Shown here in pieces: positions 2,339 to 19,188 of a stretch of DNA of 30,852 nt; positions within the stretch are counted from its first letter, which is position 1; each line of letters starts with the position of its first letter. The position numbers and the translations under genes were made by a program. The notes beneath the pieces were generated by a model, which was not told the DNA's origin, did no database searches, and saw nothing but the letters and a program-made list of their open reading frames with translations. The stretch lies in the IMG/VR virus record IMGVR_UViG_3300026484_000176, positions 1-30,852 of that record; one strand, written 5' to 3'. This stretch comes from a virus. Its lineage: Duplodnaviria; Caudoviricetes.

Positions 2339-2435
2339 TGTTTATCCTTTTTTTGTTTTGTTTTTATAAGTTGATTTATGAGTTTTTCAACTTATCTACT
2401 ATTATTATAATGTTTTTTTTTATTTTTTGTTTTAA
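2339..2435 (-). promoter_or_regulatory. Early promoter/leader cassette
   Basis: TTAAAA (2430-2435)-N20-TATAAT (2404-2409); inverted repeat 2366-2395; AAGGA; near-identical to 47-141. Confidence 0.75.
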
Positions 2436-2779: not shown

Positions 2780-2877
2780 TTTGTGTCCTTTTTGTTTTAA
2801 TTTTTGATAAGCTGAATGTTTTACTTTTCAACTTATCTACTATTATTATAATAGTTTTTTATTTTTTGTTTTCTTAA
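2780..2877 (-). promoter_or_regulatory. Early promoter/leader cassette
   Basis: TTAAGA (2872-2877)-N21-TATAAT (2845-2850); inverted repeat 2807-2836; AAGGA. Confidence 0.75.
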
Positions 2878-2896
2878 TTTTAAAGAAATTTAAAAA

Positions 2897-3142
2897 TTAT
2901 TTCTTTATATCTTGTTTTTTAGAAGAATATCTGACTTTTGTTTTTAACATAATTTGAATTTCTTCAACCATTAATAAAATTTGATTTATATTTCTATAAT
3001 CTTTTAATAATAACTCATAATCTTCTTGTTCTAATTCTTTTACTGTTGTGAAATTACTTAATTTATATATTTGTTCTATTTCTTCTTTTATTTGTTCTAA
3101 GTCTCTTGTTTGTTGTTCTATTTCCATTTGTTCATAATGCAT
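2897..3142 (-). CDS. Hypothetical coiled-coil protein
   Basis: 81 aa ORF, first gene of the leftward arm, with own cassette. Confidence 0.75.
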   Translation of the reverse strand: MHYEQMEIEQQTRDLEQIKEEIEQIYKLSNFTTVKELEQEDYELLLKDYRNINQILLMVEEIQIMLKTKVRYSSKKQDIKK

Positions 3143-3238
3143 TGTTTATCCTTTTTTGTTTTGTTTTTATAAGTTGATTTATTAGATTTTCAACTTATCT
3201 ACTATTATTATAATAGATTTTTTTTATTTTCATCTTAA
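3143..3238 (-). promoter_or_regulatory. Early promoter/leader cassette
   Basis: TTAAGA (3233-3238)-N20-TATAAT (3207-3212); inverted repeat 3169-3198; AAGGA. Confidence 0.75.
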
Positions 3239-3274
3239 TTTTAAAAGAATTTGCAAATTTATAAATTATTTCAA

Positions 3275-3710
3275 GATGTAACCTTTTTTGTAACCTCTAT
3301 ACTTCCCTATATTCTGGGCTTTATGGACTGTTTTGGACTGTTGTTATTTTTTAGATGTAACCTTTTTGTAACCTTTTTGTAACCTCTGAAAGTTCCTGAT
3401 GTAGGGCTCTTCAAGTGTTTTGCTTGTTAAAATGTCTAAATTTTTTAGTTTTACTCTTATAAAATATAGTACACATAATTTATTTTTTTTTTAGTTATTT
3501 TAGTATATATTGAAAATTTATATGTTAAAAAACCTTATGAAAGTACATAATATAGGGAAGTATAGAGGTTACAAAAAAGGTTACAAAAAGGTTACATCTA
3601 TATTTTAACCATTCTCCAGCAAAACACTCGAACAGCCCTCGCCAGAGTGAAAAACTAAGCATGTCGAAAAGGTTACAAAAAGGTTACATCAGCAATAAAA
3701 TCATGTAACC
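3275..3710. repeat. Head-to-head GTAACC/GGTTAC iteron array with long inverted repeat; candidate replication origin
   Basis: GTAACC at 3278, 3290, 3357, 3368, 3379, 3705; GGTTAC at 3567, 3579, 3590, 3671, 3682; 11-12 bp spacing; about 3277-3313 is the reverse complement of 3549-3585; AT-rich centre; sits at the coding-strand switch. Repeat is seen directly, function is inferred. Confidence 0.75.
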
Positions 3711-4091
3711 TACTGATTAAAAAATAGGCAAAAACACCACTCGAGAGCAATAATTTTCAAATTTTGAAAGTTCCACGGATTTTTTTTATAACGGAAAATA
3801 ACAAAAAATAACAGAAATGAAAAATTAACGGAAAATAACAAAAATTAACATTAACGAAAAAAAACATTACATTCAGAAAAAATTTTCAAATTTTAAAAAT
3901 TTCCAAAAAGTGAAAAATTAAAAAACCAAAAAAATAAAAATGTTTTGAAAAATTAAAAATTAACAAAAGCTAACAAAAAAAAATATTAACAAAAAATAAC
4001 GAACAGGACATCCAGAAAAAATTTTCAAATTTCAAAATTTCACATGAACTTTTTTAGAAAACTTTAGGAACTTTTTTCGTGCAAAAAATTT

Positions 4092-4106
4092 TGATAATGA
4101 TTATCA
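4092..4106. promoter_or_regulatory. Fur-box-like palindrome
   Basis: TGATAATGATTATCA, perfect 7-1-7 Fur consensus. Confidence 0.7.
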
Positions 4107-4166
4107 ATATCGATTAAAAAAACAGGACATCCAGAAAAAATTTTCAAATTTCAAAATTTAGCAAAA

Positions 4167-4199
4167 TTAAGAGAACATTTTTTAAAAATCTATTATAAT
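4167..4199 (+). promoter_or_regulatory. Rightward promoter upstream of terS
   Basis: TTAAGA-N21-TATAAT, lying between the two 112-bp repeats. Confidence 0.6.
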
Positions 4200-4285
4200 G
4201 TATATTCAGAAAAAATTTTCAAATTTCAAAATTTCACATGAACTTTTTTAGAAAACTTTAGGAACTTTTTTCGTGCAAAAAATTT

Positions 4286-4300
4286 TGATAATGATTATCA
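4286..4300. promoter_or_regulatory. Fur-box-like palindrome
   Basis: TGATAATGATTATCA. Confidence 0.7.
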
Positions 4301-4342
4301 ATATCGATTAAAAAAACATTGCATTCAGAAATAATTTTCAAA

Positions 4343-4357
4343 TGATAATGATTATCA
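4343..4357. promoter_or_regulatory. Fur-box-like palindrome
   Basis: TGATAATGATTATCA directly after motif A (4326-4342), about 70 bp before terS. Confidence 0.7.
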
Positions 4358-4429
4358 AAAATAAATTTATAATATTATTAAAAAATAAGAAAAGAAAAAA
4401 ATATTTTAAAAATCAAAAAGGGATAAAAA

Positions 4430-4927
4430 ATGTCAAAAAAAATTTTATTAATTGAAGAACTAGAACAAAAAAACTTAATAAAAATTGCAAAAGAATATTG
4501 TTTAAATGGTTTTGATATTGTTTCAGCATATAAGACATTTATAAGCAAATCAGTATATAAGACAGATAAGAAAGCAAAAGAGAGAAGCGAAATTATTTCT
4601 GAATATACAGAGTTTAAAAACTATATAGAAGACTTTAAAGGAGATATAAAAGAACTTTATAGAGACACTACAATAGAGACAATATCAAAGCTAAGAGAGA
4701 TTATATTAAATGAATATTATGAGAAATATGATGTAATAAAAGATACTAAGACATTAGAACATAAAGACATTAAGTATAAATCTTCTATACCATTTACAGA
4801 CAAGCTAAGAGCCATAGAAACGCTAATAAAGCTATCTAAATTAGTAGAAGATGGAGAAGAAGATAAAGATACAAATAACACTATATTTAATTTTTATACA
4901 AAAGATTTAAACAAAAAGAAAAAATAA
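4430..4927 (+). CDS. terS: Terminase small subunit
   Basis: Directly upstream of TerL; N-terminal KEYCLNGFDIVSAY helix-turn-helix-like segment and DKLRAIETLIK resembling TerS C-terminal motif. Confidence 0.7.
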   Translation: MSKKILLIEELEQKNLIKIAKEYCLNGFDIVSAYKTFISKSVYKTDKKAKERSEIISEYTEFKNYIEDFKGDIKELYRDTTIETISKLREIILNEYYEKYDVIKDTKTLEHKDIKYKSSIPFTDKLRAIETLIKLSKLVEDGEEDKDTNNTIFNFYTKDLNKKKK

Positions 4928-4992
4928 TTTTTTTTAACATTATATAAAGAAATAATTTTTGAATTTAAAAATTTTTTCCAGATGTCATTAAA

Positions 4993-5025
4993 ATAAGAAG
5001 ACATTTTTTTTTAAAGTGTTATAAT
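4993..5025 (+). promoter_or_regulatory. Promoter upstream of terL
   Basis: ATAAGA-N21-TATAAT with TG extension (TGTTATAAT). Confidence 0.55.
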
Positions 5026-5066
5026 ATATATAAGAAAAGAAAAGGTTTTTAAAAGGAAAAAAATTT

Positions 5067-6347
5067 ATGAATACTCAAGAACTTTATCCATTATCTGAAA
5101 TATCACAACAAGTATGGGAAGAACAAGATAAATATAAGATACAATGCTTACAAGGAGCAGTTAGAAGTTCTAAATCATTTACTGCAAATATAATTTTTTT
5201 AAATAAATTAAAGAATAAAAAAGGAAATGTATTAATATCAGGATTTAGTGCAGATAGTGCAAAAAAGAATATATTACCAGAACTTGAAGAATTATTAAAT
5301 GTAGAATTTGAAGGACATAATAGCACAAAAGGAGAATATTTCAGCATACCTTTAAAAGAGTTTAGACATATAAAACTATATGTTAAAGGTGCAGGAAAGA
5401 ATGGAGATGAGAAAAAAATTCAAGGTATTACACTACTTGGTTGGTTAGCTGATGAAGTAGCAACATATTCAAAACCATTTTTTGATATGACATTAACAAG
5501 ACTAAGTATGTCAAATAGTTTTGCTATATGGACATTAAATCCAGAGAGTCCTTCACATTGGTTAAAGAAATGGTTAGATAAACAAGAAGAGATAAAAGAT
5601 AATAAATATATAAAAAATTATTATTATAAATTAGATGATAACTTATCATTAACAGAAGAATATAAGAATGAATTAAAAACAAGTTTCAGTGGTCATTTTT
5701 ATGATAGAATGGTTTTAGGAAAATGGGCAGTTGGAGAAGGATTAATATTTAATATAGATAAAGTTAAATTTGTAAAACAACAAGACATTCAGAAAAAATT
5801 TTCAAATATCCCAAAATTTTTATATGAAGATTATGTTGCAATAGATTTTGGAACTACTAATTATACAAGTTTTTTACATATAAGAAAACATATACCAAAA
5901 GAGATATATATAGATGAAGAAAAAGATAATGAAAGATATGCAGAATATTATATAATAAAAGAATTTTATAAGAATAAATTAAGTCCATCACAATATGTAA
6001 AAGAGTTAGAAGAGTTTATAAAAGATATAAATGTAATACAGATAATAATAGATCCAGCTTCTGCACATTTTAAACAAGAAGTCAAACAATCAGAATATAT
6101 AATGAAAAAGACAGAATTAAGAAGTGCAAAGAATGATGTCAAAAAAGGAATTTTATTAACCCAAAGATTTATAGAGAATGGATTATTAACAATATCAGAG
6201 GAATGTAAGAACTTAAAAGATGAATTAGGAGGATATAGCTGGGATGAAAAGAAGATAGATACACCTATAAAAGAGAATGACCATGCAGTTGATGCAATGA
6301 GATATGGAATATTTACAACTTCATCATTTACTTATGAAAGTTTATAA
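5067..6347 (+). CDS. terL: Terminase large subunit (PBSX/SPP1-like)
   Basis: Walker A GAVRSSKS, Walker B WLADE, coupling motif TLNP, nuclease residues IDFG, DPA, DHAVDAMRY. Confidence 0.95.
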   Translation: MNTQELYPLSEISQQVWEEQDKYKIQCLQGAVRSSKSFTANIIFLNKLKNKKGNVLISGFSADSAKKNILPELEELLNVEFEGHNSTKGEYFSIPLKEFRHIKLYVKGAGKNGDEKKIQGITLLGWLADEVATYSKPFFDMTLTRLSMSNSFAIWTLNPESPSHWLKKWLDKQEEIKDNKYIKNYYYKLDDNLSLTEEYKNELKTSFSGHFYDRMVLGKWAVGEGLIFNIDKVKFVKQQDIQKKFSNIPKFLYEDYVAIDFGTTNYTSFLHIRKHIPKEIYIDEEKDNERYAEYYIIKEFYKNKLSPSQYVKELEEFIKDINVIQIIIDPASAHFKQEVKQSEYIMKKTELRSAKNDVKKGILLTQRFIENGLLTISEECKNLKDELGGYSWDEKKIDTPIKENDHAVDAMRYGIFTTSSFTYESL

Positions 6348-6355
6348 ATATATTT

Positions 6356-6370
6356 TGATAATCATTATCA
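6356..6370. promoter_or_regulatory. Fur-box-like palindrome (inverted composite element)
   Basis: TGATAATCATTATCA followed by the reverse complement of motif A (6371-6390). Confidence 0.7.
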
Positions 6371-6439
6371 TTTAAAAATTTTTACCGTATATTCAGAAAA
6401 AATTTACAAATTTACAAATTTTTTAAAAATTTAGCAAAA

Positions 6440-6472
6440 TTAAGAATAAAAAAATTTTTTTTCTATTATAAT
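6440..6472 (+). promoter_or_regulatory. Promoter of early-cassette type
   Basis: TTAAGA-N21-TATAAT then ATAAGTTGAAA half-site (6481) and AAGGA. Confidence 0.65.
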
Positions 6473-6526
6473 ATAAGTATATAAGTTGAAAGACTTAAAG
6501 AAAAAACAAAAAAAAAGGACAAAAAA

Positions 6527-6862
6527 ATGAAAAACTTAATAAAAGAATTAACAAACAAAGTAAATAAAATAAACGCAATAAACGATAAAATAGAAAATTT
6601 TAGAGCTGATATGCTTCCAAGAGATAAATTTATATTTGGATTAGAAGAAGAAGAATTAACAATAACAATTGAAAATCCTTATAAAGATTCAAAATTTTCT
6701 TTATCAATAGTTAAAGAAGAAGAAAACAAAGAAAGATTTAATAAAGCTTTTAATAAATTATTAGAAGATTTAACAGAAGAAGAGTTAAGCGAACAACTTT
6801 GGGAAATAATATATGTTTTCTATACTTTTAATAATAATTATGAATTAGTTGAAAGATACTAA
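6527..6862 (+). CDS. Hypothetical protein
   Basis: 111 aa acidic ORF with strong RBS and own promoter. Confidence 0.8.
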   Translation: MKNLIKELTNKVNKINAINDKIENFRADMLPRDKFIFGLEEEELTITIENPYKDSKFSLSIVKEEENKERFNKAFNKLLEDLTEEELSEQLWEIIYVFYTFNNNYELVERY

Positions 6863-7011
6863 TCCATAATTTTAAAAAATTTTTTTTAAAATGTTATAAT
6901 TAAACAAGACATTCAGAAATAATTTTTGAATTTAAAAATTTCTTTAAAATAAGAACAAAAAAAATAAAAAAACATTATAATAAATAATGAAAAGAAAAGG
7001 AAACAAAAAAA

Positions 7012-7371
7012 ATGAAAATTAATTTTAAATGTTGTATGACTTGTAATATTGTAAAAGATATTAAACATTTCAATAAAAACAATAGACATTGTAAAAAATG
7101 TATAGCAAAAAAAATTAAACAAAAAAGACAAGAAACAAAAAAACATTTATTAAAAAGAAGAGGAAACAAATGTGAAGACTGTGGATTAGAATATGATGGA
7201 GAGAATATTTATTATTTTACATTTCATCATGTAAAACCAGAAGAAAAAAAATTTGAATTATCAGCAAATAAAAATTATTCTTTAAAAGAATTAGAAGAAG
7301 AAGCAGACAAATGTATAATATTATGCCACAATTGCCACAATAAATATCATTATATAAATGGATTTAAATAA
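7012..7371 (+). CDS. Zn-binding HNH endonuclease
   Basis: CxxC pairs, CEDCG...FHH...KCIILCHNCH; own promoter ATAAGA-N21-TATAAT at 6949-6981. Confidence 0.85.
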   Translation: MKINFKCCMTCNIVKDIKHFNKNNRHCKKCIAKKIKQKRQETKKHLLKRRGNKCEDCGLEYDGENIYYFTFHHVKPEEKKFELSANKNYSLKELEEEADKCIILCHNCHNKYHYINGFK

Positions 7372-7511
7372 TTAATGACATCCAGAAATAATTTTCAAAT
7401 TTCAAAATTTAGCAAAATTAAGAACAAAAAAAATAAAAATCTATTATAATCAAAATCAAAATTATTTTTGTAATATAATTAAAAATAAAATATTACAAAA
7501 GGTATTAAAAA

Positions 7512-7793
7512 ATGAAAGAAGAAAAAAAGGATTTTTGTACTTTATTTTTTGAAAATTATCGAGGTGTATATATTGGAGATTGTTGCAAAAAGCACGATAT
7601 AGAGTGTGGATTTTCAGGTTCTTACAGTATTAAAAAATCAATAGATATATTTTATAATTGTTTAATAAATAAAATAGATAAGTTTTCTGCTATAATGATA
7701 ACAGCAGGTGGAACAATAGGATACATTGTAAAATATCCTTATTTATTTATAAGAAAATATAAATATAGAAAAAAAATTTTAAAGGAAAAATAA
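7512..7793 (+). CDS. Phospholipase A2-like small protein
   Basis: DFCT...DCCKKHD matches the CCxxHD secreted-PLA2 catalytic signature; promoter TTAAGA-N21-TATAAT at 7418-7450. Confidence 0.55.
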   Translation: MKEEKKDFCTLFFENYRGVYIGDCCKKHDIECGFSGSYSIKKSIDIFYNCLINKIDKFSAIMITAGGTIGYIVKYPYLFIRKYKYRKKILKEK

Positions 7794-7794
7794 T

Positions 7795-9081
7795 ATGTCA
7801 GTAAAGTCAAATAATAAATATAAAACATTAGCAGAACATATAATAAAAACATATGAAGATGATGAATATTACAAAAATTCAATATTTAAAAATGAAGTTT
7901 TAGGTAAACATATAGTAGATAAATTTGGAAATATAGATGATAAAGCAATATCACAAATTCAAATAATGGTTTTGCCATTTGTTAGATTTATAACAACTGC
8001 AATATCACAATTATATTCAAAACCAGTTTTAAGAACAATAAATACAGATAATAATAAAATATTAGAATTATTTGAGGAAGTTTGTTCAGCTTATGACAAT
8101 ATTTCAGAAGATATAGACAAATATACATTTGCAGGTGGAATGTCAGCAGTAAAAGCACATTTTGATGATATAGATAAAGAATTAGAATTTGTGATATATA
8201 CAGCAAATATGTTAGATTATACTCCAAGAGCTGATGATTATACAAAAATGGAAGAATTATATCTAAGTTTTTATAATGATGAAGTACAACAAGAAGAGGT
8301 TTGGAGTAAAGAAGAATATAATTATAATGTAAATGGTTCAAATTCAAAAAGTGAAAAAAATATTTATGGATTTATTCCTTTTGAAATTTTTAGAAATAAA
8401 ATAATTCCAAATTCTTGGTTTTGTCCTCCTTCTTCTAATTTATTAGACATTCAAAATTATATTTCTAATCAAAATACACAATTAGGAAATAATTTTAAAT
8501 ATCAATCAATGGATATGATAGTTGTTAAAGGTGGAGGAAAGTTAGAAAATATGAATTTTGGTGCAAAAGCTGTAAATAAAGTAGAAACAGAAGATGATAT
8601 AAAATTTATTTCTCCATCTACAGATTTAAAAAAATTAGTTTCAGTAGTTGAAGACCAAATAAAAATTTTTTCAAGAATGAATGGAATACCTGATTCATTA
8701 ATTTCTGCTGCTTCTACAAGCTCAGGAATATCTTTAATAATATCACAAAAAGCTTTAGATGATTATTTAAAGAATAGAAGTATAAAATTTAGAAAGACAG
8801 AAGAAAAAATTCTTTTAAAAGGTCTTAAAGTATTAGGATATCATAAAGGAATAACTATACCAGAAGAATTAAAAATTTCTTTAAATTATACTTCTGCAAA
8901 TCAAATGACAAAATTAACAGAAGATGAACAAAAAATGTGGGATTTTTATATAGAAAAGAATATATTAACAGAAGTTGATTTAATGATGACAATGTTTCCA
9001 AATCTAACAGAAGAAGAAGCAATCCAAAAGATAGAAGAGAACAAACAAAACAAAACAAAACAAGAAATCATTACATCTTGA
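7795..9081 (+). CDS. Portal protein
   Basis: 428 aa, position after TerL; N.YG.IPF, SSG.SL and C-terminal TEEEA...IEE features typical of SPP1-like portals. Confidence 0.85.
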   Translation: MSVKSNNKYKTLAEHIIKTYEDDEYYKNSIFKNEVLGKHIVDKFGNIDDKAISQIQIMVLPFVRFITTAISQLYSKPVLRTINTDNNKILELFEEVCSAYDNISEDIDKYTFAGGMSAVKAHFDDIDKELEFVIYTANMLDYTPRADDYTKMEELYLSFYNDEVQQEEVWSKEEYNYNVNGSNSKSEKNIYGFIPFEIFRNKIIPNSWFCPPSSNLLDIQNYISNQNTQLGNNFKYQSMDMIVVKGGGKLENMNFGAKAVNKVETEDDIKFISPSTDLKKLVSVVEDQIKIFSRMNGIPDSLISAASTSSGISLIISQKALDDYLKNRSIKFRKTEEKILLKGLKVLGYHKGITIPEELKISLNYTSANQMTKLTEDEQKMWDFYIEKNILTEVDLMMTMFPNLTEEEAIQKIEENKQNKTKQEIITS

Positions 9082-9123
9082 AAAAATTTTCAAATTTCAT
9101 TACATACGGAAAAAATTTTTAAA

Positions 9124-9138
9124 TGATAATGATTATCA
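9124..9138. promoter_or_regulatory. Fur-box-like palindrome
   Basis: TGATAATGATTATCA after two tandem motif-A variants (9074-9123), just upstream of the RBS of ORF 9163. Confidence 0.7.
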
Positions 9139-9162
9139 AAAAGAAAAAAAAGGATTTTTAAA

Positions 9163-9975
9163 ATGACAACTGAAGAATTAGTAAAAAAATTAAGTCAAAC
9201 AACAGATAGAAAAGCAATATTAAGATTAATAAAAGAAGCAACTATAGATAATTCAATAAAAATTGATGATATTGCTTCTGGTGATATTGGTGATACATAT
9301 ATGTTAAAATCTGATTATGATACTGATAAGAATGGAACAGTAGATATAGCAGAATTAGCGTGGGAATCAAGTGAAGCTGCAAGAGTTAATGGACATACAG
9401 TAGAGAGTGATGTTCCTTCAAATGCAGTTTTTACAGATACAACATATACAGATTTAGAAATAAAAACAAAATATGAAAATAATCCTAATACAAATGCTTA
9501 TACAGATATAGAAAAAGCAAAATTAGATGGAATAGAAGAAAATGCAACAGCAGATTTAACAGCACCAGAGATTAAATCATTATATGAGAGTAATGCAAAT
9601 ACAAATGTTTTTTTAGATGCAGAAAAAGCAAAACTAGCAGGAATAGAACCATTAGCAACAGCAGACCAAACAGATGAAGAAATTAAAATTGCATACGAAA
9701 ATAATTTTCAAGTTTTAACAATAAACTCTGATACAATATTAACAGAAGAAAAAAGAAGTATTTTAGCTGATACAATAAATAATAATATAAATTTAACTTT
9801 ACCAAATTTAAAAGATAATTTAATAATAAATATAAAAAAAATTAATGAAAAAAATATTTTAAGAATTATAACTCCTGGTAATGAATTAATAGAAAATGAT
9901 ACAGAAATAATTTTAAATGTTAAAAATGAAAGCATAACACTTTTATGTGATAATAATAATTGGTTTATTATATAA
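9163..9975 (+). CDS. Fibre-like virion structural protein
   Basis: 37-aa tandem repeats with EKAKL.GIE..ATAD, a YDTDKNGTVD motif and a C-terminal ILADT...INLTLP beta domain, all seen in phage fibre proteins. Confidence 0.6.
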   Translation: MTTEELVKKLSQTTDRKAILRLIKEATIDNSIKIDDIASGDIGDTYMLKSDYDTDKNGTVDIAELAWESSEAARVNGHTVESDVPSNAVFTDTTYTDLEIKTKYENNPNTNAYTDIEKAKLDGIEENATADLTAPEIKSLYESNANTNVFLDAEKAKLAGIEPLATADQTDEEIKIAYENNFQVLTINSDTILTEEKRSILADTINNNINLTLPNLKDNLIINIKKINEKNILRIITPGNELIENDTEIILNVKNESITLLCDNNNWFII

Positions 9976-10024
9976 TAAAATTAAATAACAAGATATTAAG
10001 AAAAAATTTTTAAAAGGAAAAAAA

Positions 10025-11227
10025 ATGAGTTATAAACCATTTAATATGTATGATAAGAATGATACAGCATTTGATGCTTGGGGAAGACCAAAGATTTATC
10101 AAGATTTATCATTATTGCATGGAGTTTTTACATATAATGTTCCAAATTCTTTATGGATAATAAAAGAAAATGGAACTGAATTATTAGATAATGATACTTC
10201 AACAAAAGTTTATTCTTCTACTATAAACTTAGGAAGATTAATAGTAGAATCAGGAGAAAATGCAAATGATGAAGGAAGCTTATATTCAAGAAGAAGTCCA
10301 AGATATCAGCCAAATAGAGGACATTTATTTTCAACAGCAGTAGGTTTCCCAAATCCAACAGCAGATGGGATTAGAGATTTTGGATTATTTAATGAAGAAA
10401 ATGGAGTTTTTTATAGATTAAAAGCAGATGGATTATATGCAGTTATAAGAAGTGAAGGTTCTGATTATGAAGAAAAAATAACAATACCTTTTTCAATAGA
10501 TTTATCAAAAGGGAATATTTATGATATACAATTTCAATGGAGAGGAGTAGGAGATTATAATTTTTTTATTGGAAATCCAGAAAGTGGGAAAATAGAATTA
10601 GTTCATAAAATAACTTTTTTAAATACATTAACAGAAAAATTATCAATTTCTAACCCTGCTTTACCAGTTGGAATGAAAGCAACTAATATAACAGAAGCAG
10701 TAAGTTTTTGGCTTGGTTGTTTTGATGTTTCAAGTGAAGGTGGAAGTAAAGTATTTTTTAAATATTCGCAAGTAGGAAATGATAATATAAATGGAACAAA
10801 AATATCAAATGATAAATTATATCCAGTAGTTGCTTTAAAGGTAAATAGAACATTTAATGGAAGAATAAATACAAGAGATGCAATATTAAGAAGAATAATA
10901 TTAAGTGCAAAAGATGAAAATAGATATGAAGTACAAGTAACAAGAGATGAATCAGCTTTTTCTGGAACAACTTGGACAAATAAAGGAAGTTTTGATAATA
11001 TGCAATATTCACAAGGTACAGATATATCATATACAGAAACACAATATTGTCATACAATATTAAATGGAAGAAGTGAAATAGATATAAAAAATGAAATAGC
11101 AACTCCTGTTTTTGATGGAAGTTCTGATTTTACATTAACTGCTGGTGATTATATAGTAGTTTTAATGAAAACAGATGGAACAGATAAAAGAGCTTGGGCA
11201 TCTATTGAATATACAGAAGAAGTATAA
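10025..11227 (+). CDS. Putative beta-rich virion structural protein
   Basis: 400 aa; DAWGR N-terminal motif, RYQP.RG, QWRGVG; beta/lectin-like composition; function inferred. Confidence 0.55.
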   Translation: MSYKPFNMYDKNDTAFDAWGRPKIYQDLSLLHGVFTYNVPNSLWIIKENGTELLDNDTSTKVYSSTINLGRLIVESGENANDEGSLYSRRSPRYQPNRGHLFSTAVGFPNPTADGIRDFGLFNEENGVFYRLKADGLYAVIRSEGSDYEEKITIPFSIDLSKGNIYDIQFQWRGVGDYNFFIGNPESGKIELVHKITFLNTLTEKLSISNPALPVGMKATNITEAVSFWLGCFDVSSEGGSKVFFKYSQVGNDNINGTKISNDKLYPVVALKVNRTFNGRINTRDAILRRIILSAKDENRYEVQVTRDESAFSGTTWTNKGSFDNMQYSQGTDISYTETQYCHTILNGRSEIDIKNEIATPVFDGSSDFTLTAGDYIVVLMKTDGTDKRAWASIEYTEEV

Positions 11228-11649
11228 TGAAATTATTTTTAAATTATACACCAGTTCCTGCTTCAAGACCAAGAGTAACGAAGTGGGGGACATTTTATAG
11301 TAAAAAATATAATGATTATAAAAATAAAATAAAACATGACATTCAGAAAAAATTTTTAAATGATAATGATTATCAAAAAGCAGAAAAAACAACTGCATTA
11401 AATATAAAAATAATTTTTAAATTTCCTTTTCCAAAATCATATAGTAAAAAAAAGAGATTAGAAATAAAAGAAAATAATTATTTGCATTTAATAAAACCAG
11501 ATTTAGATAATTTAGAAAAAGCTATTTTAGATGGAATGAATGAAATTGTATATAATGATGATAGTCAAATATGTGAATTATCAAGTTCTAAAAGATATAC
11601 AGAAGAGGAAAACGGAAGTACAGAAATAATTATAGAAGTTATAAAATAA
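11227..11649 (+). CDS. rusA: RusA-family Holliday junction resolvase
   Basis: PVPASRPR N-terminus; KPDLDNLEKAILDGM...YNDDSQI catalytic motif. Confidence 0.92.
   Translation: MKLFLNYTPVPASRPRVTKWGTFYSKKYNDYKNKIKHDIQKKFLNDNDYQKAEKTTALNIKIIFKFPFPKSYSKKKRLEIKENNYLHLIKPDLDNLEKAILDGMNEIVYNDDSQICELSSSKRYTEEENGSTEIIIEVIK
11361..11375. promoter_or_regulatory. Fur-box-like palindrome inside rusA
   Basis: Motif A (11344-11360) + TGATAATGATTATCA, read as DIQKKFLNDNDYQK. Confidence 0.65.
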
Positions 11650-11703
11650 TTTTTTTTATGATATACTATAAAAGAACAAAAAACAAAAAAAAAGGAATTA
11701 AAA

Positions 11704-12342
11704 ATGCTTACAGAAGAAGAAAAAATAAAACAACAACTGGAAGAATTAAACAAAAAGAAAGAAGAGGAAAACAATGATAACAATACTAATAATAATGAAG
11801 AAGATAAGAAAGAAAATGAAGAAAATGATGCAGAGAAAAAATTTTCAAATGATAATGATTCTCAAAAAGAAAATAAAGAAGAAGTAGAAGATAAAAAAAA
11901 AGAACAGGAAAAATCTATATCGAAAGAGCAAGAAATACTAAACAAAAGAATAGAAGAACTTGAGAAAAAATTAGAAGAAGAAAGACAAAAGAAAGAAGAA
12001 ACAGAAAAAACATTATTAGAAAAACAAAATGAGATTTTAGAGAAGTTAAAAGATAAAGAAAGAAAGATAGAAGAAAAGATATTAGAAAGTTCAGGTGCAG
12101 AAGATAAAGAATATGTTAAATATTTAGCAGAAAAACTAGTAAATGAAGGCAAAACATTTGAAGAAGCTATAAATGTATTAAATGAAGAAAAACCTAATTT
12201 ATTTGTGCAAAATAGAAAAAGCATAGGGACAAAACCAAATGGAAACAGTTCAGGAAAATTAACATATGCAGAATGGGAAGCATTACCAAAGAATGAAAGA
12301 ATAAAACAAATGAATGCAGGAAATGTTGATTTAAACTCATAA
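11704..12342 (+). CDS. Capsid scaffolding protein
   Basis: Highly charged coiled coil directly before the capsid gene; EKPNLF motif; extended -10 TGATATACT at 11659-11667. Confidence 0.8.
   Translation: MLTEEEKIKQQLEELNKKKEEENNDNNTNNNEEDKKENEENDAEKKFSNDNDSQKENKEEVEDKKKEQEKSISKEQEILNKRIEELEKKLEEERQKKEETEKTLLEKQNEILEKLKDKERKIEEKILESSGAEDKEYVKYLAEKLVNEGKTFEEAINVLNEEKPNLFVQNRKSIGTKPNGNSSGKLTYAEWEALPKNERIKQMNAGNVDLNS
11850..11864. promoter_or_regulatory. Fur-box variant inside scaffold gene
   Basis: Motif A + TGATAATGATTCTCA (one mismatch). Confidence 0.6.
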
Positions 12343-12440
12343 AAAAAAATTATAATATAATTATATAAGTTATTTTTTAACAATATAATTATATTTTTAT
12401 AATATAATATAAAAAATTAAAACAAAACAAAGGAAATAAA

Positions 12441-13256
12441 ATGGCATTCAAAAAAACTTTTTGGTCAGATAAACTTGAAGAAAAATTATATGCAAATCAA
12501 CCTCTTATAGATGTTGTTAGAGCAGATTTTGAAGGTGAAGCAAAATTTGGTAATATGGTTAAGGTATATACTTATGAGTCAGCTGTAACAGTTCAAGACT
12601 ATGATGGAGTTACACCAGTACCAGCACAAAAACTTGCACCGTCTGAAGTTACTTTACTAATAGACCAAGCAAAAACTTTTAGAATAAGAACAGATAGAGT
12701 TGATGAACTACAAGGTGATCCTATGGCAATTGACAAATTTGCTAAAACAGCAATGTTTGAAGTTGGTCAATTAATAGAATCTAAAATATATGCACATAAA
12801 GCAGATTTAACAAATAACTTAGATTTATCAGGTCAAGGACCAATGGACGCAACAAATGCAGTTTCTATAATTGAAAAACTTGAGGTTTTACTTGATGATG
12901 AAAATGTTGATACAGACAGATTTTTATATGTACCAAATGCTATAAAATCTATTTTAAGACAAGCAAATTATTTAAATGTAACACCAGTAACTAATTCTGA
13001 AACAGGTGGAACAAGAGAAGTTGCAAGATGGGGAAATTTTGAAGTTATTTCTTCTAGTAATTTAGTTGCTAATGGTGGAGTTTATGAAATCTTATTTGGT
13101 TCAAAAGATGCTATAAGATTTGTTGGAGCATTAGAAGAATTAGAATATGGAAAAGTTGAAGGATTATTTGGTAAAGCAATTTTTGGTCTTTATGTATATG
13201 GTTCAGCAGTTTTCAATTCTAAAAAAGGTGGAACATTAACAATAGATGCTGCATAG
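12441..13256 (+). CDS. Major capsid protein
   Basis: FWSDKL, FEGE..FGNMVKV, LLIDQAK, VP..DRFLYV-like and GLYVYG motifs of P22-coat-like HK97-fold capsids; follows scaffold. Confidence 0.88.
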   Translation: MAFKKTFWSDKLEEKLYANQPLIDVVRADFEGEAKFGNMVKVYTYESAVTVQDYDGVTPVPAQKLAPSEVTLLIDQAKTFRIRTDRVDELQGDPMAIDKFAKTAMFEVGQLIESKIYAHKADLTNNLDLSGQGPMDATNAVSIIEKLEVLLDDENVDTDRFLYVPNAIKSILRQANYLNVTPVTNSETGGTREVARWGNFEVISSSNLVANGGVYEILFGSKDAIRFVGALEELEYGKVEGLFGKAIFGLYVYGSAVFNSKKGGTLTIDAA

Positions 13257-13327
13257 TGTTTATTGTTAATTAAATATTAAAAAATTTCTCTTTTATGATA
13301 TAATATAAAAAACATAAAAGGGAAATT

Positions 13328-13555
13328 ATGAAAAAAACAAAAATAATAAATACAAAAACAAATTTAGTCTTCTATATATTAGATTTATTTGTTCCTACAC
13401 AATTAGAAAAAAATCCACATTATAAAATCTACAAAGAAAAAAAATCCACAAAGAAAAAAAATAATAATAAAATTAAAGAAGAACAAGATATTCAGAAAAA
13501 ATTTTCAAATGATAATGATTATCAAAAAGAAAAAAAACAAACAAAGGATAAATAA
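13328..13555 (+). CDS. Small basic hypothetical protein
   Basis: 75 aa; extended -10 TGATATAAT at 13296-13304; TAATG-coupled to next gene. Confidence 0.65.
   Translation: MKKTKIINTKTNLVFYILDLFVPTQLEKNPHYKIYKEKKSTKKKNNNKIKEEQDIQKKFSNDNDYQKEKKQTKDK
13510..13524. promoter_or_regulatory. Fur-box-like palindrome inside ORF 13328
   Basis: Motif A (13493-13509) + TGATAATGATTATCA, read as DIQKKFSNDNDYQK. Confidence 0.65.
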
Positions 13556-13935
13556 TGTTAATATTAACAGGACAAGACATAATTGAATATATGCCAGTTA
13601 TATCAGAATATGCAGGATATGAAAGAGATAATACAGTATTTGATGAATATATATTATCAGTAGCACAAATTTTATTAAATGAATTACAAATGGCAGGAAT
13701 AGATGGAACAACTGAAGAGGTACAAAACAGTCCTTTGTTTAAAGAGCTTACATTAAAAACAATAGTATGTAAATATTATAATGAAACAAGTTATAATATA
13801 GAAGAAGACGAAAGATTTATAACAAGTTTATGTGAAGATTCAAAAGATTTTTTAAAAAAATTTATAAAATCAATGTTAGATAATGGAACACCAGATAAAT
13901 TTAATGGTTCAATAACTACTTCATATTCAGGTTAA
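13555..13935 (+). CDS. Putative head-tail adaptor
   Basis: Size, helical character and position after the capsid gene. Confidence 0.5.
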   Translation: MLILTGQDIIEYMPVISEYAGYERDNTVFDEYILSVAQILLNELQMAGIDGTTEEVQNSPLFKELTLKTIVCKYYNETSYNIEEDERFITSLCEDSKDFLKKFIKSMLDNGTPDKFNGSITTSYSG

Positions 13936-13939
13936 TAAT

Positions 13940-14299
13940 ATGAAAAAATCTAGAATATTAAGAAAATTAGATAAAAGACTAGATAATAAAAAAATTTCAA
14001 ATATTATGGCTAAATATATAGCAATACAAGCTAAAAAAAATATTAAGTCTGGAAAAGATGCTAATTATAAAAAATTTAAGAAAAGAAAGACAAAAAGAAA
14101 AAATAAGATTTTGTATGATACAGGAGATTTATATAAATCTATTAAATATAAAAAAAATAATATTTCTTTATTATTATATGGAATTTTTAATCAATATGGA
14201 ACAAGTAGAGGAATAGATTCAAGAAAATTTATTCCAATGAATAAGACAAAGCAATTTGAAGTTATAAAAAAAAGAATACTTAAAGGATTATTAAAATGA
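13940..14299 (+). CDS. Virion morphogenesis / tail completion protein (Mu gpG, P2 gpS-like)
   Basis: ILYDTGDLYKSI and NQYGT...I..RKFI motifs. Confidence 0.75.
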   Translation: MKKSRILRKLDKRLDNKKISNIMAKYIAIQAKKNIKSGKDANYKKFKKRKTKRKNKILYDTGDLYKSIKYKKNNISLLLYGIFNQYGTSRGIDSRKFIPMNKTKQFEVIKKRILKGLLK

Positions 14300-14682
14300 T
14301 AACACAATATTTAAAAGATTTATTACAAGATTTTAAAGATAAAAATCCAGAATTTAATAAGATAAAGACTTCAGTTGGTTTAACACAAACATTAGAAAAT
14401 AGAAAGAATTTTGCTGATTTACCATTAATATTAATAGAAAATATAAATTTTTCTAGTGATGATTTATTAACAGGAACATTATCTTTTGATATAATGTATT
14501 TTGATATAGACAAAAAATATAATGGATATGAAAAGTTAGAACAAGACTTTTTGGAAAAATTTATAAATTATATCAAAAATTATGTTTGTGAAATAAATAT
14601 AACTAATATAGAGTTTGAAATATCTGATACAGACAATGAATTTGGTGTCATTGTTAGTTGTGATACAGTATATACAATTTAA
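14296..14682 (+). CDS. Putative tail terminator
   Basis: Position before tail tube, acidic, LPLILI motif; ATGA-type overlap. Confidence 0.5.
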   Translation: MITQYLKDLLQDFKDKNPEFNKIKTSVGLTQTLENRKNFADLPLILIENINFSSDDLLTGTLSFDIMYFDIDKKYNGYEKLEQDFLEKFINYIKNYVCEINITNIEFEISDTDNEFGVIVSCDTVYTI

Positions 14683-14738
14683 AAATTTTTTTATAATATC
14701 ATTATAAGAAATAATTAAACAAAACAAAAGGAAATAAA

Positions 14739-15686
14739 ATGGCAATAGGTAAGTCAAAAAAACAACTTTTATCAATTCAAAGAAGTTATGATAATGCAAA
14801 TTATGATTCAATACCAGTTACAAATGTTATAGATATAAATCCAGAAGCAGTTGGTGAAGATATAAATTTAATTACTTCAAAAATGGGAAGTAAAAGAAAT
14901 TATAATGATAAATGTCATACAACTGTTAATTTTAATATTGAAACATATTTAACAAGTAAATTAATTACTTATGATAATGGTGGAACAGATGAATATTATT
15001 CTATATTAGATACATTATTAAAACAATCTGGTATGAAATCAGCACAATTAGGTATAGGTATAGGAGTTGAATATACACCAGACTCAAATGCAAATGATAA
15101 TTCAATAATGAATTTTTATAAAGAAGATGTTAAAAGAACAATAACAGGTGCAAAAAACTCTTTAACAATATCTGGTGAAGTAGGAAAACCATTAGCAATA
15201 ACTTTTAATAATTCAGCATATACTGATTTAGTTCCAACAATATCAGCACCAACTGAACCTGATGCTGTTTTAGATAGTGGAGAATTATTTATTCTATGTA
15301 AAATACAAGGATATACAGAAGCTGGAAATATTGTTAATTTACAATCTTTTACATTAAATCAAAATACAGAATTACAAGATACATATGCAATAGGTTTAGG
15401 ACAATTTGATATGACAGATTATGATTATCAATTAGAAGTTACAGCATTAAAGTTAAAAAATGATATTTCAAATTGGCAAGATTTTGAAGCAGGAACACTT
15501 AAAGAAATAGTTATAGGTGCTACAAATTCTGATGAAACACATGAAATAACAATTGTTATAAGTCAAGCAAAATTATTAACAAATACTGATGGAGACGATG
15601 CTGGAAGACAAACAGTAGTAAGAAATTTTAGATGTCAAAATGATTTAGGTGATGACAATATAAAAATAATAATTGCAGAAGCATAA
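14739..15686 (+). CDS. Major tail (tube) protein
   Basis: 315 aa beta-rich; TGAK.SLTISGEVG motif; position before chaperone and TMP. Confidence 0.8.
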   Translation: MAIGKSKKQLLSIQRSYDNANYDSIPVTNVIDINPEAVGEDINLITSKMGSKRNYNDKCHTTVNFNIETYLTSKLITYDNGGTDEYYSILDTLLKQSGMKSAQLGIGIGVEYTPDSNANDNSIMNFYKEDVKRTITGAKNSLTISGEVGKPLAITFNNSAYTDLVPTISAPTEPDAVLDSGELFILCKIQGYTEAGNIVNLQSFTLNQNTELQDTYAIGLGQFDMTDYDYQLEVTALKLKNDISNWQDFEAGTLKEIVIGATNSDETHEITIVISQAKLLTNTDGDDAGRQTVVRNFRCQNDLGDDNIKIIIAEA

Positions 15687-15748
15687 AATAATAATTTTGT
15701 GATATACTATATAAAAATAATTTTTAAATTAAAAAAGGATATCACAAA

Positions 15749-16021
15749 ATGAAAAAATTAAGTTTTAAAACAAAAGAAACTAAAAGAAAGACTACAATAT
15801 TATTAGAAATTGATAATGAAGAAATAGAAGTAATTTTTACAACTCCTACTGCTTCAAATGTCGGACAAGATAAATTAATAATTGATATGTTTAAATCAAT
15901 GTTAAGATTAAATAAAGATAAAGAAAAAATTTTTAATTTATTAATTGATAATTTAGATATAGAACAAATAACAGAGATTATAGGTTCTGTTAATGAAGAA
16001 CTTTATCTAAAAAAAAAATAA
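15749..16021 (+). CDS. Tail assembly chaperone (gpG-like, short form)
   Basis: Between tube and TMP; ends on an A10 slippery run. Confidence 0.8.
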   Translation: MKKLSFKTKETKRKTTILLEIDNEEIEVIFTTPTASNVGQDKLIIDMFKSMLRLNKDKEKIFNLLIDNLDIEQITEIIGSVNEELYLKKK

Positions 16022-16359
16022 AAAGACTTTTTAAGTGGACTGAGCAGAATTCAAAAGATGACGGTTCACTTAATAAATACATAATAGAAAATAAAGAAGA
16101 ATATTTAAAATTAGATATAGAAGATGAAAATTATATAGAATTTTTAGAAGATGATTATGAATTAAAAGAATTATCAGAAATATTTTTATTAATTCCTTGG
16201 GATTATTCAGATGGGATTATTTTAAATAAGAACTTTATTGCTACAAAAACACTACTAAAACTCCATGGTTATGACTTAAAGACTACTTTACCACTATTTC
16301 TACAATTATCTAATATTTGGGCTAATAATAAAAGAGAAGAAATTAAAAATAAAATTTAA
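16009..16359 (+). CDS. Tail assembly chaperone -1 frameshift extension (gpGT-like)
   Basis: The -1 frame is open from the A10 run (16009-16018) to TAA at 16357-16359 (IKRLFKWTEQNSKDDG...REEIKNKI) with no ATG of its own. Confidence 0.8.
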   Translation, partial: KKKIKRLFKWTEQNSKDDGSLNKYIIENKEEYLKLDIEDENYIEFLEDDYELKELSEIFLLIPWDYSDGIILNKNFIATKTLLKLHGYDLKTTLPLFLQLSNIWANNKREEIKNKI

Positions 16360-16416
16360 TGTGTAATATAATTAAAATAATAAATAAAATCATTATATAG
16401 AGAAAAAATTTTTAAA

Positions 16417-16431
16417 TGATAATGATTATCA
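16417..16431. promoter_or_regulatory. Fur-box-like palindrome upstream of TMP
   Basis: AGAAAAAATTTTTAAA + TGATAATGATTATCA about 10 bp before the AAGGA RBS. Confidence 0.7.
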
Positions 16432-16452
16432 AAAAGAAAAAAGGAAAATTTT

Positions 16453-18603
16453 ATGGCAAGAAATAATGAAACAATAACATTAAAAATAAATGTTTCAGGA
16501 AATGGCAATTTAGAAATAAAACAAATGAATGAAAAACTTGAAGAAACAAGTAAAAAAGGGAATAAAGCTTCTAAAAGTGTAAATAACATAGGTGAATCAG
16601 CAATAAAATCAACAAAAAAAGTTTCAGATTTATCTGTTTCTTTTAGTTCATTATCAAAAATAGTAGCAGGTATTTCATTAGGAGCATTAGCAACAGACTT
16701 ATATAGAACAAATGAAGAATGGAGTAGATTAAATGCTATAATGAAAGCTACTTCTAAAAATTCTGAAAAAGTAAAAAGAGATTTTGAAATAATTAAAAAT
16801 TTTAAAGGAATAACATACTTTGATCCACAAGATATAGCAGAAAGTTATAATTTATTAAGAAGTCAAAATATTAAATTCTCAAAAGATTTATTAAATACTA
16901 TAACTGGAACAGCAATTGCAACAAATCAAAATATAGTAACAGTTACAGAACAATTTAGAGCAGTTTTAAATGGAGAAGAAGCTACACTAGATGATTATTT
17001 TAAAGCAGTAACTAAAACAACTGATGGAATATTAGTACAATATACAACAGCAGAAGGTAAATTAAAAACAAAATTATTAAAAACAGCAGAAGATACAGCA
17101 GAAGCAATGAAAGAACAATTTGGAAGTGTTAATAAAAGTTTAGAAGATACATTTTCACAAACTGCAAGAATATTTAAAGAAAGAATATCAAATAGAATAT
17201 TAAAAGATTTAAAAATATTTGCTAAAACTTATATAGAAGAATTTAATAAGATAACTAAAAAAAGAGAAGAAGAATATTTAAAACAAAATAATTTACAACC
17301 TGCAAAAGTAAATAAATTTTTATTAGAAGATACAGATGTTAAAGCTGGTGAAAAAATAATTGAAAAAAATAAAGAAATAGAACAAAGTAATAAAGAACTT
17401 GCTGATTCTGTTAAAACAGTTAATGCTTTAACAAGTCAATATCAAGAAACTATAAGTGATACAAAAAGTCTAGAAGAATTAAATAATGCTACTGTTAAAT
17501 ATTATGATACTTTAAAACAAAAAGGTCTTAAATTACAAGATGAAGTATTAAAAAGACAATCAAAAGAATTTGAAAAACAATTAAAAGTAATTGAAAAAAA
17601 TAATAAAGAAAAATTAAATAAAAAAATAGAAGAAATTAATAGAGAAATTGAAATTTTAAAAGCAGGTAAAGAAAAAGAATTTTTATTATTAGAAGAAGCA
17701 AAACAAAAAGAATTAGAAAGTGTTAAAAATCCTAAATTAATACAAGCAATAAATGATAAATATGAAGTTGAATATAATTTATTAAAAGATAAATTAGAAA
17801 AAGAAAAACAATTAAAAGAGCAACAAACATTAAGTTCAATAGATAGTAGAATTTCAGCATTAGGAGAAAGTCCTATTGATTTAACACAAGGAATGACACA
17901 AGAAGAACAAAACCAGAAAAAATTAGAAGAAATAAACACATTTTATGATGAAAAAATTTCTATATTAGAAGAAAAATTAAATTTAGAAATTTTAACAAAA
18001 GAACAATTTGCACAAACAGAAATAGAATTAGAACGAGCAAAAGCAGATAAAATATTAGCAATAAGAAAACAAGTAGAAGATAGTAAGAAACAAGAATTAT
18101 CAAATATTGCAACTGGTTTAGAAGGTATTGCTTCTATTTTTCAATCTTTTGATACTGTAATGGGTAAACAATCAAAAGGAAGTTTTGAAGCACAGAAAGC
18201 TTTTGCTATTGCTTCTGCTACAATTAATGCTTATCTTGGAGCTTCTAAAGCATTAGCAGAAGGAGGTCCAGTATTAGGACCAATAATGGCAGGTGTTCAA
18301 TTAGCTTCTGGTTTAGCACAAGTAGCACAGATATCTTCACAAACATATCAACCAAAATATCATGATGGAGGTTTAGTTACAAATAATGGTTCTTTAAGTA
18401 ATGAAGTTGATGCAACACTTCAAACTGGTGAAGGTGTATTATCAAGAAGAGGAATGTCTGCATTAGATAAATTAAATAGAGGTGAAACAACAACAAATGG
18501 AAATGTCGAAGTTATTATTGTTAATAATATGGAAGAAGCATTAGAAAGACAATTAAATTCAAGAAGTGGAAGAAGTTTAATAAAAGAAATTTCAAATAGT
18601 TAA
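16453..18603 (+). CDS. Tail tape measure protein
   Basis: 716 aa helical/coiled coil; C-terminal KAFAIASATINAY..A..ALA, YHDGGLV and LQTGEGVL motifs; follows the frameshifted chaperone. Confidence 0.9.
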   Translation: MARNNETITLKINVSGNGNLEIKQMNEKLEETSKKGNKASKSVNNIGESAIKSTKKVSDLSVSFSSLSKIVAGISLGALATDLYRTNEEWSRLNAIMKATSKNSEKVKRDFEIIKNFKGITYFDPQDIAESYNLLRSQNIKFSKDLLNTITGTAIATNQNIVTVTEQFRAVLNGEEATLDDYFKAVTKTTDGILVQYTTAEGKLKTKLLKTAEDTAEAMKEQFGSVNKSLEDTFSQTARIFKERISNRILKDLKIFAKTYIEEFNKITKKREEEYLKQNNLQPAKVNKFLLEDTDVKAGEKIIEKNKEIEQSNKELADSVKTVNALTSQYQETISDTKSLEELNNATVKYYDTLKQKGLKLQDEVLKRQSKEFEKQLKVIEKNNKEKLNKKIEEINREIEILKAGKEKEFLLLEEAKQKELESVKNPKLIQAINDKYEVEYNLLKDKLEKEKQLKEQQTLSSIDSRISALGESPIDLTQGMTQEEQNQKKLEEINTFYDEKISILEEKLNLEILTKEQFAQTEIELERAKADKILAIRKQVEDSKKQELSNIATGLEGIASIFQSFDTVMGKQSKGSFEAQKAFAIASATINAYLGASKALAEGGPVLGPIMAGVQLASGLAQVAQISSQTYQPKYHDGGLVTNNGSLSNEVDATLQTGEGVLSRRGMSALDKLNRGETTTNGNVEVIIVNNMEEALERQLNSRSGRSLIKEISNS

Positions 18604-18660
18604 AATAATATAATAAAAACAAGATATTCAGAAAAAATTTTTAAATTATAAAGGAAGAAA

Positions 18661-19188
18661 ATGGATATAATAAGACATATAGCAAAGAAAGATAGTATAA
18701 GAGAATATATCACATTAGAATTTTCTACTTTTGAGTCAAAAGAAAAATATACAAGTAGAAGAAAAATAGAAATTGTACCAAAATTTACAATAACTGAAAC
18801 AATAGTAGCAAAAAATTATAATGAAATAAAAGAATTAGAAAAATTTCTTTCAAAAAATATAACTGAATTAATTGTTTTTCCTTTGTTTAGTACAACTACA
18901 AAAGCAACAGTAACAGAAACAACAAATATTGTAAATGGTGATTTTGTAGAACCTTGGACAAAGCCAGGTGATGTTTTATGTTTTGGAAAAGATACTAAAA
19001 ATTTAAAATATGAAACAATTATTGCAATAGATAGTATAAATAAACAAATAACTTTACAAAATGATATAAATATAAATGATAAAGATTTATTAATAACTGG
19101 TAAGATAATGACATTAAATAAACAAATAACAATAAATAAGACTTCTAACACATTTTGGGAGTTTAATATAAAAGGAAGTGAGTTATAA
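18661..19188 (+). CDS. Putative distal tail protein
   Basis: Position immediately after TMP; beta-rich. Confidence 0.5.
   Translation: MDIIRHIAKKDSIREYITLEFSTFESKEKYTSRRKIEIVPKFTITETIVAKNYNEIKELEKFLSKNITELIVFPLFSTTTKATVTETTNIVNGDFVEPWTKPGDVLCFGKDTKNLKYETIIAIDSINKQITLQNDININDKDLLITGKIMTLNKQITINKTSNTFWEFNIKGSEL

Follow-up and report, generated by a model that had tools for sequence, protein, structure and literature searches.

Dispersed sites in phage genomes

Networks of dispersed operators are already known in phages. Cluster A mycobacteriophages such as L5 and Bxb1 carry 20-30 dispersed sites for one protein, at promoters in some cases and elsewhere in others, and the consensus diverges between related phages (PMC6550527). 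These stoperators, which belong to temperate phages, are asymmetric, 13 bp long and recognized by an immunity repressor that binds as a monomer (PMC9283540). Here we analyze a dispersed motif in IMG/VR record IMGVR_UViG_3300026484_000176, a stretch of 30,852 nucleotides (Duplodnaviria; Caudoviricetes) that is called the window in its full length. We propose that the motif, which makes up half of an imperfect dyad, serves as a dispersed operator for a dimer, likely phage-encoded, that would act together with the host protein Fur on head-gene promoters. Judged from the sequence, we give this reading a probability of about one half.

The Cluster A stoperators appear to be the closest working likeness. 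The window also contains many more dispersed copies than expected by chance (22 vs 0.02). The initial annotation had drawn an analogy to the stoperators of L5, which we consider weak. Unlike a stoperator, the window motif is a 25-bp half of a dyad, lies in packaging and head genes and is fused to a host Fur box. It is paired in both relative orientations, and its orientation bias is no greater than strand skew would produce. Neither an integrase (PF00589) nor an HTH_3 repressor (PF01381) was found at E 0.1 in this phage or in its relative G001 by a search restricted to these two folds. Membership would thus fail on the asymmetry and on the repressor.

Other systems resemble the motif in single traits. 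The start-associated repeats of Cluster K mycobacteriophages (SAS/ESAS) are dispersed, have an added imperfect inverted repeat in about half of the cases and are of unknown function (PMC3203893). They are similar in their start association only: SAS overlaps the ribosome-binding site itself, whereas the window motif lies upstream of the ribosome-binding site, upstream of promoters or in genes, and the sequences are not alike. As at the pac site of SPP1 (PMC6316719), a PBSX/SPP1-type terminase is accompanied by AT-rich repeat sites clustered 5' of the likely small terminase gene (terS), but pac is one locus, whereas the copies here continue over 15 kb. The literature covered, which includes few subscription papers, contained no Fur box fused to a phage motif and none dispersed in virion genes. 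The accessible parts of PMC6969025 and bioRxiv 10.1101/866236 describe no fused or in-gene phage Fur operator, and the whole word 'Fur' is absent from the T5 injection-stop preprint.

Motif copies and their distribution

All 19 copies listed in the initial annotation (17 on the plus strand and two inverted) were found at their positions, the inverted cores at 4964-4980 and 6371-6387. A position weight matrix (PWM) of 25 columns, trained on these 19 copies and applied at a cut-off of 18 bits, returned 22 matches, namely the listed copies and three more at 2905 (-), 3274 (-) and 4947 (+). The same matrix found a mean of 0.02 and a maximum of one match in 100 order-4 Markov genomes, and leave-one-out scores were 17.2-37.0 bits. 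Searching for CAGAAAAAATTTTYAAA with up to two mismatches also gave 22 matches, compared to 1.30 expected, and 22 was reached in none of 100 shuffles.

The copies are not spread uniformly. All 22 PWM matches fall within 2.9-18.7 kb, or 51% of the genome, in line with the density gradient that had been described. Copies were found in six of six intergenic gaps at 4.9-10 kb versus two of 11 beyond 11.6 kb (Fisher p=0.002), and since the fall-off survives this correction for intergenic space, we regard the gradient as real. A tandem duplication of 194 bp, with 112 identical bases starting at 4013 and at 4207, accounts for part of the peak. The orientation of the motif does not go demonstrably beyond base composition: 18 of the 20 copies in the right arm are on the plus strand, while strand base skew alone predicts 88% (p=0.56). 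Across both arms, 20 of 22 copies are co-directional with transcription. We conclude that the motif is real and under selection, and that it is probably regulatory.

Half-site, dyad and Fur box

The half-site has the consensus RAYATnnnGAAAWAATTTTYAAA|T, in which the G is invariant. It forms half of an imperfect dyad of about 34 bp with its center at +16/+17. We examined 16 copies without a Fur box for the dyad (15 PWM matches and a weak copy at 3745); nine had at least 10 of 17 dyad matches, compared to 2.3% of the random background. A complete palindrome of 48 bp is found at 4940-4987, where two half-sites (4947+ and 4980-) meet tail to tail, while the copies at 6387 and 6394 are arranged head to head. 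The motif is thus not the asymmetric site that it had been taken for. Likewise, the trailing TTTCAAAATTT that had been noted behind some copies is present but represents a degenerate second dyad half.

Dyad copies on the plus strand lie at 3867-3907 (copy at 3874, 33.6 bits), 4006-4046 (copy at 4013, 37.8 bits, in the first unit of the 194-bp duplication), 4125-4165 (copy at 4132, 37.8 bits), 4200-4240 (copy at 4207, 32.3 bits, in the second unit), 6387-6427 (copy at 6394) and 6907-6947 (copy at 6914). On the minus strand, a full dyad copy at 3241-3281, the lead of which extends into an iteron-like repeat, scored 18.3 bits and matched the dyad at 13 of 17 positions.

Fur boxes are known in a 7-1-7 form. 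The genome contains nine stretches within one mismatch of TGATAATnATTATCA, seven of which start at +17 of the motif. These are exactly the seven copies for which a Fur box at zero spacing had been reported, six without a mismatch and one with one. In these chimeras the Fur box replaces the right half of the dyad and starts precisely at the dyad center. They are located at 4319-4357 (Fur box 4343-4357), 6356-6394 on the minus strand (Fur box 6356-6370), 9100-9138 (Fur box 9124-9138), 11337-11375, 11826-11864 (the box with one mismatch), 13486-13524 and 16393-16431. The two stand-alone boxes lie at 4092-4106, after TGCAAAAAATTT, and at 4286-4300, which is a duplicate of the first. The sequence GATAATGATTATCA, found in the right half of all seven chimeras and in both stand-alone boxes (one with a mismatch), matches the classical Fur box of 19 bp, GATAATGATAATCATTATC, when this is reverse-complemented, over its first 14 bases (PMC3788343). 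While this likens them to Fur operators, they differ in that they are carried by a phage genome, lie in three cases inside coding sequence and stand flush with a second conserved half-site; binding by Fur is putative.

Position relative to promoters and genes

Although 88% of the genome is coding (including one assumed ORF, 16140-16358), 17 of the 22 copies are intergenic (p=2e-12). A TATAAT hexamer is located at +62 of four of the 22 copies and at +73 of two, compared to a background of 0.7%; these offsets were chosen after inspection and the copies are not independent. The two distances differ by one helical turn. Copies with the +62 spacing are those at 3241-3281, where the hexamer belongs to the first early gene, at 4125-4165, at 6907-6947, which also lies 19 nt after another TATAAT and points to that of an HNH gene, and at 7376-7416 (copy at 7383), which precedes gene 7512. 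The +73 spacing is found between the palindrome at 4940-4987 and the TATAAT upstream of the large terminase gene (terL), and between the copy at 6387-6427 and the TATAAT of gene 6527. One further copy, a half-site that was not in the initial annotation (2888-2912, minus strand, 22.0 bits), has the hexamer at +55, upstream of the gene ending at 2779, and overlaps the 3' end of an 81-aa ORF.

Five copies start 13-33 nt after a TATAAT, and several end just 5' of a ribosome-binding site. The copy at 4200-4240 lies 13 nt downstream of the start of a TATAAT. Between a TATAAT and a ribosome-binding site are the half-site at 9991-10015 (copy at 9998; gene 10025), the chimera at 16393-16431 (tape measure gene) and the half-site at 18622-18646 (gene 18661). 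The half-site at 9071-9095 (copy at 9078) is at the stop of the portal-like gene, and the chimera that follows it directly precedes the ribosome-binding site of gene 9163. The TATAAT of the likely terS follows closely on the chimera at 4319-4357. Fur boxes adjoin a TATAAT, taken as a predicted promoter, or a ribosome-binding site at 4343, 9124, 13510 and 16417. A generic sigma-70 scan of the genome was uninformative (152 found vs 163 expected).

Fur boxes within genes start at 11361, 11850 and 13510. Together with a copy in terL, they belong to four in-gene copies on the sense strand, all of which are read in the same frame. The terL copy (5783-5807) reads DIQKKFSN, a peptide absent from the other 11 of 12 aligned terminases, in a stretch that is variable among all 12. 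The others are located in a RusA-like gene (11337-11375, DIQKKFLNDNDYQK), where the stretch contains indels relative to G001, in a scaffold-like gene (11826-11864, AEKKFSNDNDSQK) and in a 75-aa ORF (13486-13524, DIQKKFSNDNDYQK), with gene 13555 starting 62 nt further on; all three fall where G001 differs. At the invariant G, the in-gene copies use rare G-ending codons, either CAG, which accounts for 14 of 252 Gln codons, or GAG, which accounts for 70 of 798 Glu codons. Since the four copies share a frame, use rare codons and sit in variable stretches, the constraint acts on the DNA and not on the peptide.

Two other functions were considered and set aside. A promoter for a phage sigma factor would not have room at 9998 and 18629, because the ribosome-binding site is within about 22 nt of the site start. 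An RNA element was rejected as no Rfam match was found and folding energies were weak (-1.3 to -3.6 kcal/mol in four copies).

The related phage G001

G001 is a phage genome of 31,372 bases from IMG/VR that has 26 ORFs in common with the window at 33-73% identity and in largely the same order. It was the only relative with readable DNA that turned up; portal and terminase relatives at 37-58% are known as proteins only. The window motif reaches a best score of 8.2 bits in G001, which has a repeat of its own, AAAWAATTTTTGCA, in six exact copies (null 0.04). Two window variants, at 4947 and 6914, differ from this repeat by one base. A long gene-free region contains five of its six exact copies together with five Fur boxes, none of them fused. 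In the terL of G001, a related copy of 15 bits is in register at the position of the window copy and has the rare codons TTG CAC ATC (null 0.21 hits per genome). Although this is one match noted after the fact, it suggests that the two motifs, compared by sequence, belong to a single family of elements in which the flanks drift from one phage lineage to another, as would be expected if the binder is phage-encoded and present in both phages. The Fur fusion and the spread into genes are particular to the window phage. The related motif is located 45-46 nt upstream of a -10-like hexamer in two of six cases.

Other features of G001 were noted in passing. The five Fur boxes (L001 5024-6856) are extended, three of them reading CGATAATGATTATTATTATCAA, and follow one another at intervals of 300-700 bp; the gene-free stretch around them measures about 3.8 kb. 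A promoter-like 17-mer, TGTTATACTATGGTAAG, occurs in four identical copies, at 13300, 14901 and 18251 on the plus strand and at 1475 on the minus strand. An HU-like protein (1818-2108, minus strand) and a 49-aa protein matching the NrdD C-terminus (15177-15326, plus strand) are missing from the window. One gene of 33% identity is located in the early arm of the window (383-703, minus strand) and in the late arm of G001 (18622-18969, plus strand).

Genome organization and host

The window represents the circular, AT-rich (21.6% GC) genome of a siphophage of 30,725 bp, the whole record carrying a terminal repeat of 127 bases. A plus-strand arm from 4430 to 27320 encodes terminase, capsid, tail and holin-like genes, while the minus-strand arm encodes a primase-like gene (27317-28912), two sigma-region-2 proteins and unknowns. 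The two arms are separated by a gap of 1.3 kb with opposed GGTTACA repeats. These GGTTACA/TGTAACC repeats (11 in two opposed groups at 3275-3710) likely represent an iteron-type replication origin, near the cumulative GC-skew minimum at 3.5-4.5 kb. Opposed iteron-like repeats of different sequence are found in the same place between the arms of the two phages (GGTTACAAAAAAGG at window 3275-3710; AGACCTCACCTAAG at L001 3877-4354).

AAGGA precedes 33 of 43 genes and GGAGG none of 43. Several promoters, including those linked to motif copies, contain a single TTAAG 21-22 nt 5' of TATAAT. In Helicobacter pylori, the HP1043 element occupies the position of the -35 box (PMC5253667). Because of AAGGA before genes and TTAAG at an HP1043-like position, the host is likely a member of the Campylobacterota, as far as sequence features can tell. 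The one public run that contains the genome (X1) is a hydrothermal vent metagenome, and we regard the window as a small vent phage that likely infects Campylobacterota. Comparing X1 contigs with the window over 1-11500 revealed contigs identical to it across the copies from 4326 to 11344, although X1 may itself be the sample from which the record came. Three contig pieces in 116-3578 had a depth of 16.9-22.3, and five in 3556-11374 had one of 27.6-39.8. Such a step would fit a pac site or an origin near 3.6-4.0 kb, but we do not count it as evidence as contigs cannot show ends.

A proposed dispersed operator acting with Fur

A putative protein site acting with Fur, as the initial annotation had suggested, gains support from the position of the copies, the dyad anatomy and the exact register of the fusion, and sites of this kind could meet a regulatory need of the phage. 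Since many of its genes own a TATAAT-type promoter readable by host polymerase, many would be transcribed at once, and the phage would need a brake on its packaging and head genes. At copies +62 or +73 upstream of a -10 hexamer, next to TTAAG, the bound protein could activate or repress; between the hexamer and the ribosome-binding site it would block initiation; and inside genes it would act as a roadblock. When iron is plentiful, host Fur would occupy the right half of the chimeric sites, where iron-loaded Fur would form the second half of the complex. Head-gene output would then rise when iron or free Fur falls, including by titration of Fur by replicated genomes. Dimer binding, a phage-encoded dimer, Fur on the boxes and relief of repression by low iron or titration are all our predictions. 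As no integrase or HTH_3 repressor was found, the sites would serve timing control rather than immunity.

Candidate binders are the likely TerS and the two sigma-region-2 proteins, which are common to both phages. The likely TerS (4430-4927, plus strand) precedes terL, matches Terminase_2 at E=0.017, below the cut-off, and is 49% identical in G001. One sigma-70 region 2 protein (29001-29717, minus strand) has E=4e-10 and is 46% identical in the relative, while the match of the other (969-1502, minus strand) is weak (E=0.0018; 36% identical). A search among solved structures returned nothing significant for TerS and the larger sigma-like protein. The ORF at 1883-2338, considered as a ribbon-helix-helix binder from its likeness by eye, found no support in this role: it had no RHH_4 match at E 10 and no solved relative, RHH_4 rows in the Atlas were under the bar, and it is absent from G001.

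Several observations weigh against this operator reading. A repressor-type domain was not found in either phage through PF01381 or PF00589. Nine of the 11 gaps beyond 11.6 kb, among them the ones that precede the capsid and tail-tube genes, have no copy, and the distance gradient from 4 kb is not explained by pure promoter control. In G001, copies and Fur boxes mostly have no -10 hexamer at a fixed distance and lie in a gene-free stretch, pointing to a role that does not depend on position. For terL, the G001 match amounts to one observation, made after the fact and helped by conserved Lys-Phe codons. The comparison covers one relative, and the host is itself deduced. A precedent for in-gene sites is provided by Bacillus subtilis, where intragenic boxes of the Fur-family protein Zur are cis-repressive, but Zur's own part in this effect was not demonstrated (PMC4324032).

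A bolder version is possible though doubtful: the chimeric operators, with one half for a protein of the phage, perhaps the small terminase, and the other for host Fur, in frame in terminase, resolvase and scaffold genes, might form an iron-gated, genome-copy-counting switch for assembly or packaging. If the operator reading is true, a phage without recognizable lysogeny genes wires a host metal sensor into its head and packaging genes via hybrid operators, under selection strong enough to overwrite protein sequence. The motif would offer a short, concrete and testable element with which to ask if Fur lets phages sense the iron of their host. With two related motifs and orthologous candidate binders, the phage pair represents a natural specificity swap for naming the binder.

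Alternative explanations

The alternative that survives best, while unlikely, is a packaging or DNA-end element. Around a pac site 5' of terS, the motif would be bound by TerS or an end-coating protein; the thinning copies would mark the stretch in which successive headful ends fall, and Fur would co-bind and gate cleavage or shield the ends. The 560 nt before the likely terS contain five copies, the gradient is real, and in G001 the related motif and the Fur boxes occupy the corresponding region, between the origin-like repeats and terS. The large terminase (5067-6347, plus strand) is PBSX-like (TIGR01547, E=6e-30 over 24-414, 104.9 bits at a cut-off of 105.05), which presumably means headful packaging. 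Moreover, both pacL and pacR of SPP1 are TerS boxes, and late promoters (PL) overlap with its pac (PMC6316719). However, packaging requires neither the fixed +62 and +73 distances to -10 hexamers, which also occur in the leftward early arm, nor a location before ribosome-binding sites. The orientation of the copies is not polar beyond base skew, and the identity of TerS is itself weak. The fixed -10 spacing fits transcription better than a polar signal, while the gradient and the promoter-poor layout of G001 leave room for a pac or DNA-end role. The operator and packaging readings would merge should TerS prove to be the binder.

Less probable again are landing pads or decoys for host proteins. 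Both halves would be bound by host proteins, either Fur in its iron-bound and iron-free forms or Fur and another regulator, and the replicating phage would soak up these proteins, reprogram iron control or coat its own DNA. Nine near-perfect Fur boxes here and five in the gene-free region of G001 are consistent with this, as is the seemingly position-independent spacing in G001. The apo-Fur element of H. pylori, TCATT-n10-TT (PMC3950669, PMC9696931), spans the junction in seven of seven chimeras, but the genome has 42 such elements in all, and the non-Fur copies have none. There would be no need for decoys to overwrite coding sequence or to keep a fixed promoter distance, and the Nitratiruptor phage NrS-1, which infects vent Campylobacterota, has neither motif. 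By inspection, the motif consensus does not fit the operators of CosR (TTAA-n7-TTAA; bioRxiv 10.64898/2026.08.04.742711) or HP1043 (TTTAAG-n5-TTTAAG; PMC5253667). A site conserved in hosts was rejected as well: GTDB genomes contained no exact chimera and 13 single, scattered matches to the motif in unrelated taxa, none of them Campylobacterota, by exact matching, which does not reach a degenerate host site.

A promoter cassette that spread by duplication and gene conversion, most copies having no function of their own, is quite improbable: part of the cluster does stem from the 194-bp duplication, genes 6527, 7012 and 7512 do carry the promoter cassette of the early genes, and the related motif of G001 does precede -10-like hexamers in two of six cases, but four copies are in frame with rare codons in structural-region genes, three of them with a Fur box, and seven keep the exact +17 fusion despite varied leads, which argues for selection on each site.

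Beyond the window, viral contigs contained no chimeras and three single motif matches. Metagenomes yielded 24 chimera-related stretches, five of which are the record of the window itself; the other 19 are single and partial, and none extends into the full Fur palindrome. DnaA and CodY boxes were set aside by eye. RAATTY methylation has been linked to Campylobacterota, though the accessible parts of PMC4752239 do not mention the link. A cluster of RAATTY sites was rejected as the explanation of the motif: up to three occur per dyad, but there is no genome-wide excess (216 vs 227.5), and the commonest form in G001 contains no RAATTY.

Additional observations

The window contains a third repeat, the inverted repeat TAAGTTGA-N12-TCAACTTA, at 74-111, 2368-2405, 2809-2846 and 3171-3208, with a half copy at 6482. 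It lies in the leaders of four minus-strand early genes, right after the same TATAAT, and is absent from G001. This repeat may be an operator or an RNA hairpin. G001 has no counterpart of three genes between terL and the portal-like gene (6527, 7012 and 7512, spanning 6527-7793; one of them HNH), all of which come with an early-type promoter cassette of their own. Finally, an open stretch without a listed start (16022-16358) follows a 90-aa tail gene that ends in an A-run before its stop; from this pattern, we take the stretch to be likely a frameshifted tail assembly chaperone.

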